Notes: a model not told the origin generated them from the sequence alone. A DNA stretch of 14,891 nucleotides from an uncultured Methanosarcinaceae archaeon (GCA_963721455.1 CAVRJG010000067.1:1-14891), one strand, 5' to 3'; shown: positions 1,473 to 13,630, numbered from the stretch's first letter. Program-made: numbers and translations.

Positions 1473-1550
1473 TTACCAAAACTTCCAAAACGATTTTTTC
1501 TTTTCTCCATGTGCCTCTATAGCTTTCTGATTGATCAGCGTTTGAACCTG
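1473..1550 (-). repeat. Copy B of the gene 3'-end repeat (QVQTLINQKAIEAHGEKKKSFWKFW*)
   Basis: Minus-strand translation matches the C-terminus encoded at 1971-2046. Homology stops abruptly at 1550. Confidence 0.85.
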
Positions 1551-1712
1551 TTTTTCAAGTGAAAAAATATGGTGTAGTCATACTCCGAATTGATTTTTGA
1601 TGAAAAACATAATGAAAACTTTTGGATATCTTAATACATAATAAAATCGTAATTAATATATAATTATTGTTCGGTAAAGAAATATTTTACGTAGGGATAT
1701 TTTTTGTTTAGA

Positions 1713-1969
1713 GACATTTTTTTGTATAATTAATTTAAAATATATATTGGGAGAATTATATTATTGTAACCTGAAACGAACAGATCAACAAGTCGTCGTA
1801 ACAGCCAAAGCATGTAAGTAAAGAATTGCCTGGAAGATGTTCTAATCCGAATAAATATTGATGGGGTATATTTTCGGATCTACTGTATCGGGGGCTATAG
1901 TAGAAAGAATGTAATTCTTCCAGGCTTTCTTTAATCTTTTAAATCGTTCCTTTTTCTTCTCTTTTTGCA
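1713..1969 (+). ncRNA. Candidate structured ncRNA unit, copy 1 (promoter, three-way junction, T-rich end)
   Basis: Stems 1819-1825/1927-1933, 1828-1837/1916-1925 (perfect 10 bp) and 1838-1843/1906-1911 enclose hairpin 1845-1879 (loop contains GGGG) and hairpin 1880-1903 (loop TCGGGGGC). Homologous to 6825-7054 on the minus strand. Confidence 0.6.
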
Positions 1970-1970
1970 T

Positions 1971-2320
1971 TTACCAGAACTTCCACCATCTCTTTTTTTT
2001 CTCCAGGTGCTTCAATTGCCTTCTGATTAATCAATGTTTGAACCTGCAGGAAATAATTATTATGCATTTGCTTAAGGTCCTCTTTATCCTGGCCTGCCTT
2101 CTCGAGTTCTGCCTTTAGTGTGGAGTTATGCCTTTCTAACTCTTCAGATCTGGCATGCAGGCGCGAGAACTCCCGAGGGTCCGGAGCTCCCAGCAGGATA
2201 TACTTAATCTTTCAATCTCATTTTTTAGGCTCTTATTCTCTGTCTCCAATTGTGTCCGGACTGTCTCCGGATGTCTCCGCTTTGTCTCCAATTGTGTCCG
2301 GAATGTCTCCGCTTTGTGCC
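1971..2320 (-). pseudogene. Frameshifted remnant of a coiled-coil protein gene ending in a WWKFW-type tail (copy C)
   Basis: Reads RTQLETENKSLKNEIERL / frameshift near 2205 / YILLGAPDPREFSRLHARSEELERHNSTLKAELEKAGQDKEDLKQMHNNYFLQVQTLINQKAIEAPGEKK / extra A in the A8 tract / RWWKFW*. No intact 5' end is recognisable. Confidence 0.7.
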
Positions 2321-2321
2321 C
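2241..2321. repeat. Eight TGT(C/G)TCC-type heptamers with 10-11 bp spacing
   Basis: Starts at 2241, 2251, 2262, 2272, 2283, 2293, 2304 and 2315 (the last is TGTGCCC). There is an exact 20-bp repeat at 2241-2260 and 2283-2302. Confidence 0.9.
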
Positions 2322-2599
2322 TGACCAGGGATAATACCAGCGTCGCTTAAATGAGATGCAAAGTAGATAACTTATTCAAGGGAAAAATATTGAAATCAGT
2401 ATCTAGAGGACTAATGTCATCAACATTTAGAAGTTATCATTATCAATTTAATTTTAAATTTTCGAGAAAAATGCTATCGAGAAAAAAATAAAAATGATTC
2501 TTACGTTCACCGGTCGAAAGAATAAACAATATGAGGAGACGGATAGCATGGCTAATTCTCAGTATAAGTTAATTACTTTGCGTCTAGTTTAAGTAACGC

Positions 2600-2718
2600 T
2601 GGTACTGGGCCGACAAGGAAACATTGTAAGCAATAGTACACATCAACTCAAAAACAGAAGAGTTCGAAACAGATCTACCGCATTCGCGGCAGGGTGTTTA
2701 ATGATCGTATAAACACTT
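2600..2718 (+). pseudogene. Degenerate IS1-family transposase N-terminal fragment
   Basis: Aligns with 3549-3667, sharing TCAAAAACAGAAGAGTTCGAAA and GTGTTTAATGATCGTATAAACACTT, with indels and loss of the Cys codons. Confidence 0.8.
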
Positions 2719-2773
2719 TCAGGAGCAAGAAAGAAAAAAGGAATTGGAAGTTATGACCACGTTAGAGAATATG

Positions 2774-3160
2774 TTAACGTCTTCCGCTTCGCCTAATTCG
2801 TTTGGTGGTTGTTTTTACTTTCGGTTTTGGTTTGTTTTCGGCATCTTGACTTACTGAGTTTTTATTTGCTGTGTCGGTCGGGTCTTTTGCGTCAACCTTT
2901 TTAGAGGGGTCTGAGGCATCCGTTTTTGTTGCAGTGTTGGGGGTAATGTAAGATTTTGCAGCCTGGATATTCCGTGTTACGTGCCTGTTCCAGAGACTTG
3001 ACCAGAACATCATTGACCAGAAACCAGAATGCCCGTTCTGACTATTATTAAATGAAGGTGTTGATGTATTGTTATCTTTTGCGGGTTGTTCCTGTCCGAT
3101 GCAACCGCTAAATCCGCTAGTAATTAGCAGCATAACTAATAAAAAACATATTTTTTTCAT
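2774..3160 (-). CDS. Putative lipoprotein, 128 aa, with a low-complexity basic tail
   Basis: MKK, a hydrophobic stretch and lipobox FSGC. Then an aromatic segment (GFWSMMFWSSLW), a T/D/K-rich region and an RRSGRR end. SD-like AAGAGG upstream. Confidence 0.8.
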   Translation of the reverse strand: MKKICFLLVMLLITSGFSGCIGQEQPAKDNNTSTPSFNNSQNGHSGFWSMMFWSSLWNRHVTRNIQAAKSYITPNTATKTDASDPSKKVDAKDPTDTANKNSVSQDAENKPKPKVKTTTKRIRRSGRR

Positions 3161-3202
3161 TAAAAAGCCTCTTGTACTTCAATTGAAGTGTTGAATTTCC
3201 AC

Positions 3203-3236
3203 AAAAAAGATACACAGGTTAAGCCCCTGTGTATCT
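3203..3236 (-). terminator. Perfect 11-bp hairpin followed by a U-tract, upstream of the lipoprotein gene
   Basis: AGATACACAGG (3208-3218) pairs with CCTGTGTATCT (3226-3236) around a 7-nt loop. A T-run follows on the minus strand. Confidence 0.55.
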
Positions 3237-3424
3237 GCCTCCGAATTGGCCGTGAATATCTCAAAGAGTTCTGAGGAGTTTTAGGCATTTTATTCTTTTG
3301 TATTGATTCCCTCATTTGAACCATTTTACTCATTTTTATAAGTTGTCAGCCTGAATTTCCTGTTTTTTTCTTTTTTAAGCTTCGTGTTTGTGTTTTTTTG
3401 CAATTATGCACTTAATGTTATTCA

Positions 3425-4006
3425 GGTGCCCCCATAATATTGAGTTGGTATTATATAATAGTAACAATAATGTGTACTTGATGGGGAAAAGAGGAGCAAA
3501 ACCCAAGTTTACTGACGTTCCATGTCCAAACGAAGCCTGTAAATTTTATGGTATTCCTGGACAAGGAAATATTATAAGCAACGGTACATATCAAATCAAA
3601 AACAGAAGAGTTCGAAAATATATCTGCCGTGAATGCGGCAGAGTGTTTAATGATCGTATAAACACTTATTTCTATAATCTGCGCAAAGATGAATCCGTCA
3701 TCGAATTAGCCCTGAAAATGTCGATGAAAGGAATGTCAATTGAGGGTATTGCTAATGTACTGGAAGTCCAACCGGTCACGGTTAGTAACTGGTTGTTTCG
3801 TGCAGCGAAACAATGTGATATTGTAAATGAAGATAAAATGAATGATCTCAATATTTCCAGGGTTGAGATGGACGAATTGTGGTTAATAATTGAAAAAAAG
3901 TTACGCCAATAACGGAAACTGAAGATGATGGAGCATGGATGTGGGTAAGCTTTGCACCTCAATCCAGACTAATAATTGACTTTAGAATAGGTCCCGGAAA
4001 ACAACG
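3425..4006 (+). mobile_element. Truncated IS1-family element (InsA-like ORF 3481-3912, -1 frameshift into an InsB-like DDE segment)
   Basis: MGKRGAKPKF start, zinc ribbon CPNEAC...CRECG, HTH region and VEMDELW. Slippery A_AAA_AAG at 3894-3900. The -1 frame continues DDGAWMWVSFAPQSRLIIDFRIGPGKQ and then loses similarity near 4006. Probable left IR GGTGCCCCCATAATATTGAGTTGGTATT at 3425-3452. Confidence 0.8.
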
Positions 4007-4445
4007 CGTGTACCATCACTATCCGATAGAAGATTTCCTCTGGGGAAGCCAACTTTTGAAATAATATTTGATAAGAATTCATCTGCCGGAAAACGGTCAA
4101 TACCTGCTAACTCATTTTACTATGTAGAGAGTCAGTTTAATTGCTTCACTCTTATATACAGAGATACCTTTATACATTCTATCACACCTTTTACATTCAA
4201 TTTCTTACTCAACAATAACCGATAACTGCCAGTGCAGCACCTAAAAGAGCTAAGAGAGGAATCGAGCGCAAAAAGGGTTTAAAAAACAGAAGAAAATATA
4301 ACGAGCCGATGGGCTTAAAACTGAAGGAAGAGCAAAAAGAGTTAGATTTGAAAGAGGATTAGAGGAAATTAAAGAAGAAATAAAGAAGAATTAAAGGAAA
4401 GTTAAAAAGAATTAAGGCGCTTCCTGCTTAGATTCGGGTGAAAAT

Positions 4446-6347
4446 ATGGAAAAATACGATTACAGTGAACTTGGGCTGAAAGCCGGGCTTGAAATTCACC
4501 AGCAGCTGGATTCGAAGGAGAAACTTTTCTGCAGGTGTCCGACTCTGATCAGGGATATCGGGGATTCGGACTTAGAGTTTTTCAGGTATCTCAGGGCTAC
4601 GGAAAGTGAGATGGGAGAAAAGGACAGGGCTGCGGTGGAGCAGACCAAAATCCGGAGGAAGTACATCTATAAGGCTTATGACACGACCTGCCTTATCGAA
4701 AACGACGAAGAGCCTCCGAGAGAACTCAATAAGGAAGCCCTGGACATTTCCCTTGGGGTTGCAAAGCTTTTCCGCATGAAACCTGTCGACCAGATGCATG
4801 TTATGAGAAAGATCGTGGTTGACGGGTCGAACACAAGCGGTTTTCAGAGGACTGCTCTTCTTGCAAGCGACGGGTATATTGAGACCTCTGAAGGGCGCTG
4901 CGGGATTGACAGCCTCTGCGTGGAAGAGGAAGCTGCCCAGAAAATCGAGGAGATCGGAGATTCGATCGTGTATTCCCTGGACAGGCTGGGAATCCCGCTT
5001 GTGGAAATTGCAACTGCGCCGGATCTCAAATCCCCTCGCCACGCAAGAGAGGTTGCTGAGCAAATAGGGATGATCCTCAGGTCTACAGGGAAAGTAAAGA
5101 GAGGGCTTGGCACTATCAGGCAGGATGTAAACATCTCGATTGCAGAAGGCGCAAGAGTGGAAATAAAGGGCGTGCAGGCCCTTGACCTCATAGAAGATAT
5201 TGTCCGCAGGGAAGTTGAAAGGCAGCTGAGCCTTCTTTTCATCAGGCAGGAACTTATGGAAAGAAAAGCCTTTGTCTGCGAGGAGATATACGACGTAACA
5301 GGGCTTTTCATAGACACAAAATCCAAAGTCCTGCAAAAAGGCGTGAAAAAAGGTGCAATCCTTGCTGCCCTTCTCAGAAAATTCGAGGGACTTGTAGGCA
5401 AAGAAGTCCAGCCGGGAAGAAGGCTAGGGACCGAATTTTCAGATCGGGCAAAGACTTCTGGCGTCGGAGGGATTTTTCATACTGACGAACTTCCTAATTA
5501 CGGGATAACCGAAAAGGAAGTCCAGGCCGTCAGAGACGCAATAGGTGCATGCCCGGGGGATGCCGTAATAATGGTTGCTGACGAGCCCGAAAAAGCCAGG
5601 CTTGCAATCGAAGCAGTTATCGCAAGGGCAAAAGAGACCCTCGAAGGAATCCCTGAAGAGACTCGAAAAACCCTTCCTGATGGGAACAGTGCCTATATGC
5701 GTCCCCTTCCGGGCGCTGCGAGGATGTACCCTGAAACCGATGTTCCTCAGATCGAAATCTCGCAGGAATACTTCGATTCGATTGAGACTCCCGAACTCCT
5801 GACAGACCGGGCAAAGCGCTTTGCCTCCGAAAGCAGCCTGAATAAAGAGCTTGCAGAAAAGATAGCTTATTCCAGACATCTTCCACTATTTGAAAACCTT
5901 ATCGAGACCTACAGGAAAGATGCAAACGTAAACTCAACCCTGATTTCCAGGACTCTTGTGGGGATCGTTCCGGAAATCCGGAGAAACGGGGTTGAAACGG
6001 ATAACCTTACGGATGAGCATTTCAAAGGACTTTTTGCAGCCATCTCAAACCAGGAAATCGCAAAGGAAGCAATTCAGGACCTTTTGACTGCCCTTGCGAA
6101 AGAACCTGAACTGACAGCCCAGGAAGCGATATCAAAGCTCGGGCTCAGTACCTTTGACCCCGAAGAAGTCGAAAATTTCATCAAAAATATGATCAGGGAA
6201 AAAGGAGACTTCATCAAGGAAAAAGGCCCGGCAGCCCTCGGCCCCCTTATGGGCATTGTCATGAAGGAATACAGGGGCACAGTCGACGGAAAAATCCTGA
6301 GCCAGATGCTTAAAAAAGAACTGGATTGCTTCATCAATCAGGGGTAA
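4446..6347 (+). CDS. gatE: Glu-tRNA(Gln) amidotransferase subunit E
   Basis: Motifs [76 protein letters not shown] and [14 protein letters not shown]. Length 633 aa. Confidence 0.98.
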
Positions 6348-6487
6348 TTCCCTGCCTTATTTTTTCTCTCAATTTTTGGAGCTATCCCACTTTTTACCAC
6401 TTTTTTCCACATCGGCAGGGCTTTCACACCAGCATATTTTATTCAAATTCCACCCAGACTGATTTTTATCCTGCCAGTTTGCGTTTT

Positions 6488-6682
6488 ATAGTGATCACAG
6501 TGCAAATCTAAACTTCATAAACTATCTCCCCTATAATCAAGACCAACAAACAACAGAGGACCCAATTTGAAATCAATAAATGTGAACCTGGAGAGCCACA
6601 ATTACTGAATTGGATCTTTTGAACATATCTGAAATATACATTATATAATTTCTAAGGTAGAAATATTAACTGTGTTCACTAT
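6488..6682. mobile_element. MITE-like element, copy 1 (195 bp)
   Basis: Terminal inverted repeats ATAGTGATCACAGT / ACTGTGTTCACTAT (13/14 match) in a TA context, suggesting IS630 type. Non-coding. Diverged direct repeat of 7085-7278. Confidence 0.75.
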
Positions 6683-6687
6683 AATAG

Positions 6688-6726
6688 CATTAAACCTTTA
6701 ACTATCATACCATTAAACCTTTAACT
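6688..6726. repeat. 16-bp exact direct repeat CATTAAACCTTTAACT x2, period 23
   Basis: Copies at 6688-6703 and 6711-6726. Confidence 0.85.
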
Positions 6727-6824
6727 GTCTAAATAATGAATTTGGCCATAACGTCTATTGTACTTGATTTCATATCTCAAGTGCGTAAGTTACCTAATAA
6801 AAAAGGATAGTAAGTAAATTGAAG

Positions 6825-7054
6825 GCAAAAGTAGTAAGTAAAAACAGTACGATGAATCCCAGAGGTACTGAACCTCTCCTGTATCCCAATACAGTTACTC
6901 CGAAATTATGCTCCCCCAAGCATATTGGTTCGAAGAAGGATCAGCAACCCTTAGAAATGCCTTTAGTAGGGTGGATTACCCCTATTTACTTCCCGATCCC
7001 GCTAGTTACTAATAACAAAAACTATTTTAAATTAATTATTCAAAAAATTTTGTC
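6825..7054 (-). ncRNA. Candidate structured ncRNA unit, copy 2
   Basis: The minus strand reads TTCGAA..TATGCT-TGGGGG-AGCATA..TTCGGA and CTGTAT-TGGG-ATACAG, enclosed by a TGCTGA/TCAGTA outer stem. Shares the promoter-like block and 3' tract with 1713-1969. Confidence 0.6.
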
Positions 7055-7084
7055 CTAATGAAAATTATTACTAGATTAAAAATT

Positions 7085-7278
7085 ATAATGATCACAGTAA
7101 AAATCCAAACTTCCTAAATTATATCTCCTGGAATCAAGACCATCCAGCAACAGAGAACCCAATTTGAAATCAATAAATGTGGACTGGAAGGCCACAATTA
7201 CTGAATTGGATCTTTTGAACATACCTGAATTATACATGATATAATTTATAAAGTAGAAATATTAACTGTGTTCACTAT
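7085..7278. mobile_element. MITE-like element, copy 2 (194 bp)
   Basis: Termini ATAATGATCACAGT / ACTGTGTTCACTAT. Long identical blocks with copy 1, e.g. GCCACAATTACTGAATTGGATCTTTTGAACATA. Confidence 0.75.
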
Positions 7279-7510
7279 CACTGTTCAAGCCATGAACATA
7301 TCAGGTTGAACATCAGGAAAGTCCCATTCGGAGAAAAGTAATAAAACTTTACTCGTGAAATATGAAAGTTAACTTTTTATATTAATTGAGAAAATTCTTA
7401 TTTACAATATAAAAAGTGGTTTAATTAATACTATTTCTTACCGGTAGACGGTAAGAGACATAAAGTCCCTGAGAAGGTTACAAAAACCATAACCTTACGG
7501 AGAAGACCCC

Positions 7511-13312: not shown

Positions 13313-13343
13313 TTTTCTGCCTCATATCTACAGCTAGTTGAAA

Positions 13344-13480
13344 AATAATTATTGAATAACTTATTTTTAAGAAATGATTATTAAGCAAATGATATTGAGC
13401 AAATAATTATTGGTAACTGGTTTTGCAGAAATGAATATTGGTAACGATTTTGGAGAATAATTATTGAGCGAATAATTATT
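13344..13480. repeat. Cluster of AATAATTATT palindromes and variants
   Basis: Perfect copies at 13344, 13402, 13456 and 13471. Variants AATGATTATT at 13373 and AATGAATATT at 13430. Confidence 0.75.
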
Positions 13481-13542
13481 AGGTAAGTGTTATTAGAATT
13501 ATTAATTAAAAATGGACAAATGCTTACAAAATATCTTTAGCT

Positions 13543-13630
13543 CTATAATATATTAAAGTTTTATAATGTATTTAAGTTTTATAATATTTTAAGTTTTATT
13601 ATGTATTTAAGTTTTATAATGTATTTAAGT
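13543..13630. repeat. Five tandem ~18-bp repeats (TTATAATGTATTTAAGTT)
   Basis: Units start at 13543, 13561, 13579 (17 bp), 13596 and 13614. Confidence 0.9.

Follow-up and report, generated by a model that had tools for sequence, protein, structure and literature searches.

A multi-copy family of predicted structured small RNAs with ribosome-binding-site-like loops in Methanosarcina

Two dispersed units in a 14,891-nucleotide (nt) stretch of DNA from an uncultured Methanosarcinaceae archaeon (GCA_963721455.1 CAVRJG010000067.1:1-14891; the whole stretch is hereafter called the window) belong to a multi-copy family of structured small RNAs (sRNAs). Unit A lies at 1713-1969 on the plus strand and unit B at 7054-6825 on the minus strand. 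The family is well supported, Methanosarcina-specific and absent from Rfam, with a likeness to sRNAs of sibling or sponge type, and we consider it very probable that it is a real family under selection as structured sRNA. Its unusual feature is a pair of nearly invariant loops that resemble ribosome-binding sites (RBSs) and are carried on a covarying three-way junction. An initial annotation of the window, made from its sequence, had described two homologous units; both are real, but two is an undercount, as the genome to which the window belongs (73 contigs, 3.94 Mb, 98.5% complete) holds 12 copies.

The two units and their covarying core

Sequence reading and alignment located in both units all four elements that the initial annotation had listed as shared. 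The 25-mer at 1718-1742 (+) is identical to that at 7047-7023 (-) in 24 of 25 positions, the motif TTATT(A)GTAAC is present where it had been placed in each unit, and an outer stem encloses two G-loop hairpins in both. The proposed tail (ATCGT..TTTTT..CTTTTGC) is common to units A and B, but across the family only its T-runs are kept. Plain BLAST between the units gave a match limited to the promoter region (62 nt, 75.8%), and neither unit, when used as a query against the genome, retrieved the RNA body of the other. Because the BLAST match was restricted in this way, the relationship was tested with an independent covariance model, R2, built from 25 homologs from other loci and genomes, the seed of which contained neither window unit and no A-type copies. 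In a search of the whole window with filters off, R2 scored unit B highest (89.4 bits, E = 9.2e-24), followed by unit A (57.2 bits, E = 1.5e-14), and the third-ranked match reached 9.7 bits (E = 0.7). This covariance-model search, which the initial annotation had proposed as a check, thus recovered both units, and it is confirmed that their likeness is not due to chance.

The core of the RNA consists of an outer stem of 9 base pairs (bp) with a conserved CUG/CAG extension, a first hairpin of two 7-bp segments and a second hairpin of 6-8 bp. Folding of the aligned genomic copies, likewise proposed at the outset, bore out this arrangement: in the RNAalifold structure of the 12 copies, 12 of the 29 pairs show compensatory changes. 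Pair counts were taken from 46 homologs aligned to the model (29 pairs, 1322 cells). Standard pairing was found in 96.3% of these cells, compared with 34.8-58.0% when the partners were slid by 1-3 columns, and none of 500 shuffles was as high as the values observed. Both sides had changed in 17 of the 29 pairs (versus 4-9 after sliding and 8.6 on shuffling), and these pairs are distributed over all four helices (7, 4, 3 and 3 per helix), with helix 1, the outer stem P1, contributing 7 of its 9 pairs. Within this model-fitted alignment, base pairs have been kept through compensatory change beyond controls, as in a conserved structured RNA, and the claim of a conserved scaffold is upheld. The single-sequence folds of the two units are only modestly better than those of shuffles (z = -2.20 and -2.21), so the support for the structure comes from the comparative data.

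The strand of the RNA is settled because G-U cells far outnumber A-C cells (233 versus 22), and pairing is 96.3% on the promoter strand versus 80.3% on the opposite one; the initial argument from G-U pairs therefore stands. The most conserved part of the 46 homologs is formed by the unpaired bases of the loops. Loop 1 reads UUGG-GGGAG and loop 2 UUGGGGGA; both are nearly invariant, and their G columns are kept in 41-46 of the 46 homologs (45-46 for the loop of hairpin 2) while the stems vary. Also conserved are AAAGAAU on the 5' side of the outer stem and CUGAUCCU on its 3' side.

Promoter, predicted ends and spread of the family

Three T6-type tracts spaced ~17-18 nt apart precede the element TTTTTTGTATAATTAATTTAAAATA, which, read in the light of established archaeal promoter architecture, would be a B recognition element (BRE)/TATA promoter. 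The 17-nt core of this element (at most 3 mismatches) is found upstream of 41 of the 46 homologs, which come from 30 genomes, in agreement with the shared archaeal-type promoter that had been suggested from the two units. The sequence GGAG follows ~23 nt past the TATA element in 38 of 41 homologs, unit A being among the three that lack it, and is the likely RNA start; the predicted RNA of unit B begins GCGGGAUCGGG. A T5 run occurs within 90 nt downstream in 34 of the 46 homologs and is absent from 12, one of which enters masked N. With its ends placed by spacing and T-runs, the predicted RNA is ~160-190 nt long and usually finishes in an oligo-T run. We consider it probable that the family members are independently transcribed.

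The 5' domain of the RNA is purine-rich, variable in length and largely unpaired, and it carries one to several UGGGG motifs. These domains form subtypes, each of which is conserved across species, and it is between subtypes that the 5' region is variable, as the initial annotation had put it. The B-type domain resembles one motif repeated with variable spacers. At the other border, the first conserved upstream bases (TGGGCTT...TTTTTTAC; for example 1673-1700 and 7092-7065) resemble the 3' end or terminator of the RNA (GGGCTTCTTCTTAC...TTTTTAC) in 20 of 41 homologs only. Spread from tandem arrays would fit this resemblance, as would an upstream insulating terminator.

The window's genome contains 12 matches to the family covariance model R1 (E values from 3e-29 to 2.8e-7): two in the window, three in tandem on contig C39 with a spacing of ~510-660 bp, and one each on C41, C45, C46, C53, C60, C72 and C12, the last of which lacks hairpin 1. 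Homology between copies is bounded, extending from ~45-65 nt on the 5' side of the promoter element to ~200-240 nt on its 3' side. Overall, ~45-70 nt of sequence precede this element in each copy. No neighbour is shared within 2.5 kb on either side of the 12 copies at the DNA or protein level, and the neighbouring open reading frames (ORFs) are varied, with Pfam matches that include gatE, a response regulator, an aldehyde dehydrogenase and a DDE transposase. Terminal inverted repeats do not frame units A and B, the inverted pairs found there being internal helices.

The genome sets searched are samples of related genomes, in which absence means not found in the genomes searched. Within the window's genus, all 36 genomes of a first draw, which did not include the window's own, had matches (1-23 each), as did all 19 of a second draw that overlapped the first, so that both draws together give 55 of 55 sampled genome rows. 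Matches were also present in all 6 genomes of the sister genus g25, compared to none of 95 genomes from 14 further genera of the family and none of 24 from other families of the order. A strict degenerate pattern, applied to one genome per species in 185,579 species, hit 71 stretches. By title these belong to Methanosarcina, to bins of unclassified Methanosarcinaceae, Methanosarcinales or Methanobacteriota, or to an untitled metagenome chromosome, and none carries the name of another genus; the strict exact pattern gave 0 matches in the viral sequences of IMG/VR.

Synteny between species is seen for some copies, such as the one 5' of a zinc-ribbon ORF (described below), and the order of subtypes within tandem arrays is kept, which counts for long-term maintenance of the family. 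Three-member arrays were seen in the window's genome (C39:139146-140432, minus strand) and at three other loci (L072, L073 and L077), with a spacing of ~350-660 bp; their members differ in 5'-domain subtype, and the order of subtypes is similar across species.

Ribosome-binding-site likeness and candidate functions

The predicted RNAs are rich in G (~0.28, versus 0.16 for C), with a median of three runs of four or more Gs per RNA (range 1-5), and runs of four or more Cs occur in none of 41 RNAs. In the window's genome, 75 of 1175 GGGGGA sites (6.4%) are followed after 3-9 nt by an ATG that opens an ORF of at least 80 amino acids (aa). The same measure gives 5.6% for GGAGGT, 5.0% for AGGAGG and 1.4-2.0% for the control hexamers CCCCCA, TCCCCC, GCAGCA and GAAGAA; within this genome, GGGGGA acts like a Shine-Dalgarno motif. 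The 3' end of the genome's 16S rRNA is GGAUCACCUCCU, and the computed energy of both loops against it is -8.4 kcal/mol (-11.4 for GGAGGU and -0.9 to -2.7 for controls). Counting the 5' GGAG, the UGGGG motifs and the two loops, each RNA has two to six RBS-like motifs, and in the family alignments these are followed by neither a start codon nor a conserved ORF. Genomic TTGGGGGA sites (n = 107) lie mostly in coding or ribosome-binding-site contexts.

Since GGGGGA is used like a Shine-Dalgarno sequence, we tentatively propose that the RNAs act in trans as multivalent decoys or sponges that mimic RBSs. Each gene would have its own BRE/TATA-type promoter preceded by T-tracts and, usually, an oligo-T terminator. 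The RNA would begin with a purine-rich 5' domain, typically with GGAG first and one to several UGGGG motifs, and continue into the three-way junction, whose two hairpins would each display a UUGGGGGA loop. In trans, the G-runs might pair with a pyrimidine-rich RNA partner. A candidate partner is the anti-Shine-Dalgarno 3' end of 16S rRNA on 30S subunits, and an alternative candidate is a regulatory sRNA with an anti-RBS loop, of the kind described in M. mazei. A bolder version, which we regard as quite unlikely, is that RNAs from up to two dozen RBS-mimic genes, each with two to six Shine-Dalgarno-like G-runs on its junction scaffold, titrate the 16S anti-Shine-Dalgarno tail of free 30S subunits or sRNA anti-RBS loops and so set the global capacity for translation initiation, by way of copy number and a shared, co-regulated promoter. 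If this were true, the family would parallel sponge RNAs at the RNA level in archaea, with the ribosome and not a protein as its target.

Several points weigh against a decoy that mimics RBSs, or against the data behind it. The Shine-Dalgarno likeness amounts to a 5-bp interaction, which is expected from any G-run, and the excess of G-runs over dinucleotide shuffles is modest (a median of 3 versus a mean of 1.92). Scanning intergenic regions for hairpins with C-rich loops that might be the partner gave 33 scattered candidates and no repeated family, with two of these candidates corresponding to the antisense of the sRNA family itself. The alignment used for the pair counts was fitted to the model and its sequences are related, so that the counts lean towards structure. 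The 5' domain of unit A is without GGAG and G motifs and loop 2 of unit B is shortened; both window copies may thus be members that are weaker or in decay. A genus member with a 99%-complete genome yielded no more than one weak match (E = 8.7e-5), and thus the family is dispensable or replaceable. As for expression, only two metatranscriptomes shared words with the window (0.09 and 0.05 of its words). Their contigs on 1500-7400 cover mostly gatE, leaving the RNA body of unit A uncovered and the core of unit B partly covered; in one run, short contigs overlap 6905-6950 and then continue as other family members. This overlap is at most a weak hint of transcription because RNA libraries can carry DNA, and the sparse coverage is no sign that the RNAs are not expressed.

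A further point against the decoy is one orthologous copy that has a small ORF immediately downstream and no T5 terminator (L035 1669-1809, on C45 in the window's genome; also L054, L058, L069, L074 and L076). There ~60 nt separate the RNA from a ribosome-binding site, which precedes a conserved 46-aa zinc-ribbon ORF (MKHLKTCPKC...). The locus might reflect a leader role, or the zinc-ribbon protein might be a partner of the RNA.

Among the functions suggested in the initial annotation, a sponge or protein-binding RNA fits best. The binding partner could be a protein, in which case the two UUGGGGGA loops, fixed in their relative geometry by the junction, and the UGGGG motifs would form a scaffold or sponge for a possibly dimeric, Methanosarcina-specific RNA-binding protein, by a logic analogous to the titration of CsrA by CsrB/RsmZ but with another motif and another protein. 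We view such a role as possible, if rather doubtful. It would account for a sequence common to both loops that persists in 41-46 of 46 homologs on covarying stems, for a number of G motifs in the 5' domain that varies between copies as in multi-site sponges, and for a copy number that is high and variable (1-23 per genome), and the zinc-ribbon protein encoded next to the C45-type copy would be a possible partner. However, CsrA (PF02599) has 0 matches in the 98.5%-complete genome of the window, whereas control genomes give 3, most copies have no linked candidate protein and no conserved neighbours, and we know of no archaeal protein with specificity for a G5 loop. Alternatively, the RNAs might be classical base-pairing sRNAs, in which the junction would be a stabilising or chaperone-binding module and either the G-loops or the 5' domains specific to each subtype would act as seeds for C/U-rich mRNA sites, each subtype with its own targets. 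The layout of promoter, RNA and U-tail is what such sRNAs would have, the 5' subtypes are conserved across species and hold their order in tandem arrays, and two reports describe M. mazei sRNAs that pair at ribosome-binding sites (PMC3510493, PMC5867862). This reading is nevertheless unlikely, as complements of the G-runs are rare and are not enriched before starts (TCCCCC and CCCCCA give a background level of 1.4-1.7%) and the B-type 5' domain looks more like motif repeats with variable spacers than a unique seed.

We give far less weight to a cis-acting leader (riboswitch or attenuator) that serves a downstream gene. It would suit the 12 homologs without a T5 run within 90 nt (including the one that enters masked N) and the locus directly 5' of the ribosome-binding site and zinc-ribbon ORF, but a T5 run comes soon past the outer stem in the other 34, no consistent same-strand downstream ORF was found (8 of the 12 copies listed) and the neighbours are unrelated. 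Moreover, unit A abuts a convergent gene remnant, unit B faces a convergent gatE, units occur in tandem arrays, and Rfam riboswitch matches number 0. Equally improbable is a selfish or neutral repeat, either like a miniature inverted-repeat transposable element (MITE) or a product of recombination, whose fold would be incidental. Copy number that varies from 1 to 23, the proximity of some copies to transposases, integrase fragments and decayed genes, the C12 copy without hairpin 1 and the divergent 5' domain of unit A would be consistent with such a repeat. Against it stand both-side changes in four helices, the invariant loops, the presence of the family in every sampled genome of two genera, syntenic copies with subtype order kept across species and unit borders without terminal inverted repeats. 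Two other functions considered at the outset fare less well: a guide-like RNA is disfavoured because no nuclease or recombinase gene is associated with the units and the 5' domain is conserved within subtypes, and an antitoxin is unsupported because there is no conserved neighbour.

The window copies and related RNAs

In unit A, on the plus strand, the conserved upstream region with T-tracts (1673-1717), which aligns with other copies, lies directly 5' of the BRE/TATA-like element TTTTTTGTATAATTAATTTAAAATA (1718-1742), a putative promoter with exact copies 5' of other family members. The predicted RNA (1766-1955) would start ~23 nt past the TATA element and end in the T5 run at 1951-1955; further T-runs were read at 1937-1940 (T4) and 1962-1966 (a second T5). 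The three-way-junction core (1816-1930) scores 98.5 bits with R1 and 57.2 bits with R2. Its outer stem P1 pairs 1828-1837 with 1916-1925 (10 nt, 100% complementary), a pairing found among the inverted repeats and in the family covariation. The minimum free energy fold places hairpin 1, which comprises helices 2 and 3 of the pair counts, at 1845-1879 (arms 1845-1857 and 1867-1879, GGGG at 1863-1866) and hairpin 2, which is helix 4 of the pair counts, at 1880-1903 (GGGGG at 1890-1894).

Unit B, on the minus strand, has the same parts: the conserved upstream region with T-tracts (7048-7092, aligned with other copies), the BRE/TATA-like element (7023-7047, 24/25 identical to that of unit A), a predicted RNA at 6840-7000 that would start near 7000 and end in the T5 run 6844-6840, and the core at 6852-6968 (R1 103.6 bits, R2 89.4 bits). 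The fold and the model alignment place hairpin 1, with the loop UUGGGGGAG, at 6898-6935 (G-run 6917-6913); hairpin 2 (6879-6895, GGG at 6887-6885) has a shortened loop in which two positions are absent in the model alignment. The inverted-repeat pair 1681-1749 / 7016-7084 corresponds to the promoter regions of the two units in opposite orientation.

The initial annotation had also placed the units in mobile contexts. In the window this is borne out by a DDE transposase and decayed gene fragments, but other copies adjoin ordinary genes, several are syntenic across species, and neither terminal inverted repeats nor conserved neighbours were found. The sole clearly mobile gene near unit A is a 257-aa ORF at 140-913 with the C-terminal part of a DDE_Tnp_1 domain (E = 2e-05). 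The 3' end of a small minus-strand gene, with the terminal residues ...GEKKRWWKFW*, occurs three times, at 1105-1407, 1473-1536 and 1971-2067. Only the first occurrence has kept an intact ORF (100 aa); the second is a fragment, and the third is frame-shifted and adjoins the 3' tail of unit A. A 21-nt unit present 3.4 times, with an 11-nt sub-period, occupies 2240-2311 within the region of decayed gene fragments.

Unit B is flanked on both sides by a ~197-nt direct repeat (6486-6682 / 7083-7278, 85-93% identical), which looks like a local duplication that encloses the RNA gene. In the upstream copy of this repeat lies a 53-aa minus-strand ORF (7076-7237), preceded by an AT-rich region of its own, and in the downstream copy this ORF is broken to 28 aa. 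About 110 nt 3' of unit B, a 23-nt unit (TAAAGGTTTAATGG..., minus strand) is present 2.1 times at 6678-6726, and a similar doublet stands directly 3' of the C60 copy. Elsewhere in the window, a ~107-nt repeat (2612-2718 / 3560-3667, 83-90% identical) has its first copy as an isolated fragment and its second inside a 174-aa ORF at 3388-3912 with weak helix-turn-helix matches below the Pfam cut-offs, and AT-rich intergenic tandem arrays with periods of 14 (4.8 copies) and 18 (4.9 copies, 88% matches) lie at 13343-13630.

A cmscan of both strands of the whole window against Rfam 15 gave 0 matches at E <= 1 among 4227 families, hammerheads, C/D and H/ACA sRNAs, riboswitches and HEARO/omega RNAs among them, in line with the initial impression of no named family, and ARAGORN found 0 tRNA or tmRNA genes in the window. 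Candidates considered by eye were dropped as well. For a hammerhead, the core reads CUGAUCC instead of CUGAUGA, is not conserved in A-type copies and has no Rfam match; a K-turn, C/D box or H/ACA RNA likewise has no Rfam match; a small ORF in the 5' domain has a frame that is not conserved between copies; and a G-quadruplex from four G-runs would need one spacer of ~65 nt in an RNA whose hairpins covary. As classes, a MITE or non-autonomous transposon was set aside on the grounds that no inverted repeat frames both units, an IscB/TnpB omega RNA or IS110 bridge RNA on the grounds that no neighbour is conserved within 2.5 kb of the 12 copies, and a riboswitch or cis leader for its unrelated neighbours and the lack of a same-strand downstream ORF among the copies listed, with the zinc-ribbon locus as the exception.

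Bacteria have sibling trans-acting sRNAs such as Qrr1-5, OmrA/B and the CsrB/CsrC copies. Like these, the Methanosarcina family has several homologous genes (12 in the window's genome and 1-23 elsewhere), sometimes in tandem, with a shared module and variable parts, and sequence alone assigns a promoter (41 of 46) and a terminator (34 of 46) to individual copies. Unlike them, it is archaeal, has a BRE/TATA promoter, reaches 23 copies, is without a known chaperone or target and presents two G5 loops of identical sequence on a three-way junction. With CsrB/RsmZ it has in common a short, multivalent, G-rich RBS-like motif in loops and single strands, the number of which varies. However, the motif is UGGGG(G)A and not GGA in an AxGGAx/A(N)GGA context, the fold is a three-way junction and not a string of hairpins, and there is no sequence or Rfam match between the two; membership in that class is excluded by motif, fold and the absence of CsrA (0 matches to PF02599).

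M. mazei has 199 catalogued intergenic sRNAs, of which 21% are conserved in three species; sRNA154 is reported to have a loop with anti-RBS sequences, and sRNA41 to repress translation (PMC5867862). By published description, sRNA154, sRNA162 and sRNA41 are, like the present family, intergenic, structured, confined to Methanosarcina and RBS-acting (PMC3510493, PMC5867862), but by the same descriptions they are single genes with pyrimidine-rich anti-RBS loops, whereas the present family is multi-copy and RBS-like in sense. In Haloferax volcanii, non-coding sRNAs are reported to be occupied by ribosomes (PMC12482152). They too are archaeal and without coding potential; a sequence relation to the Methanosarcina family is not expected, and a ribosome association of the family is a hypothesis. 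A multi-copy sRNA family of Methanosarcina is not described in the literature compared, which comprises PMC4152357, PMC3177094, PMC3510493, PMC5867862, bioRxiv 10.1101/2025.10.28.685009, PMC11456600 and PMC12482152 and excludes the primary M. mazei catalogue (Jager et al. 2009), and some copies may already be numbered in that catalogue.

Among methanogens, Methanosarcina serves as the main genetic model, and roles are known for few of its sRNAs. If expressed, the family would probably rank fairly high in abundance among the non-coding RNAs of these cells. Set against the anti-RBS loops of characterised Methanosarcina sRNAs, its RBS-like loops point to a testable layer of translational control, in which the RNAs may be decoys for the ribosome, for sRNAs or for a protein. 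Whatever the function, the covariance model would offer better annotation of Methanosarcina genomes and metagenome bins and a marker for the genus.

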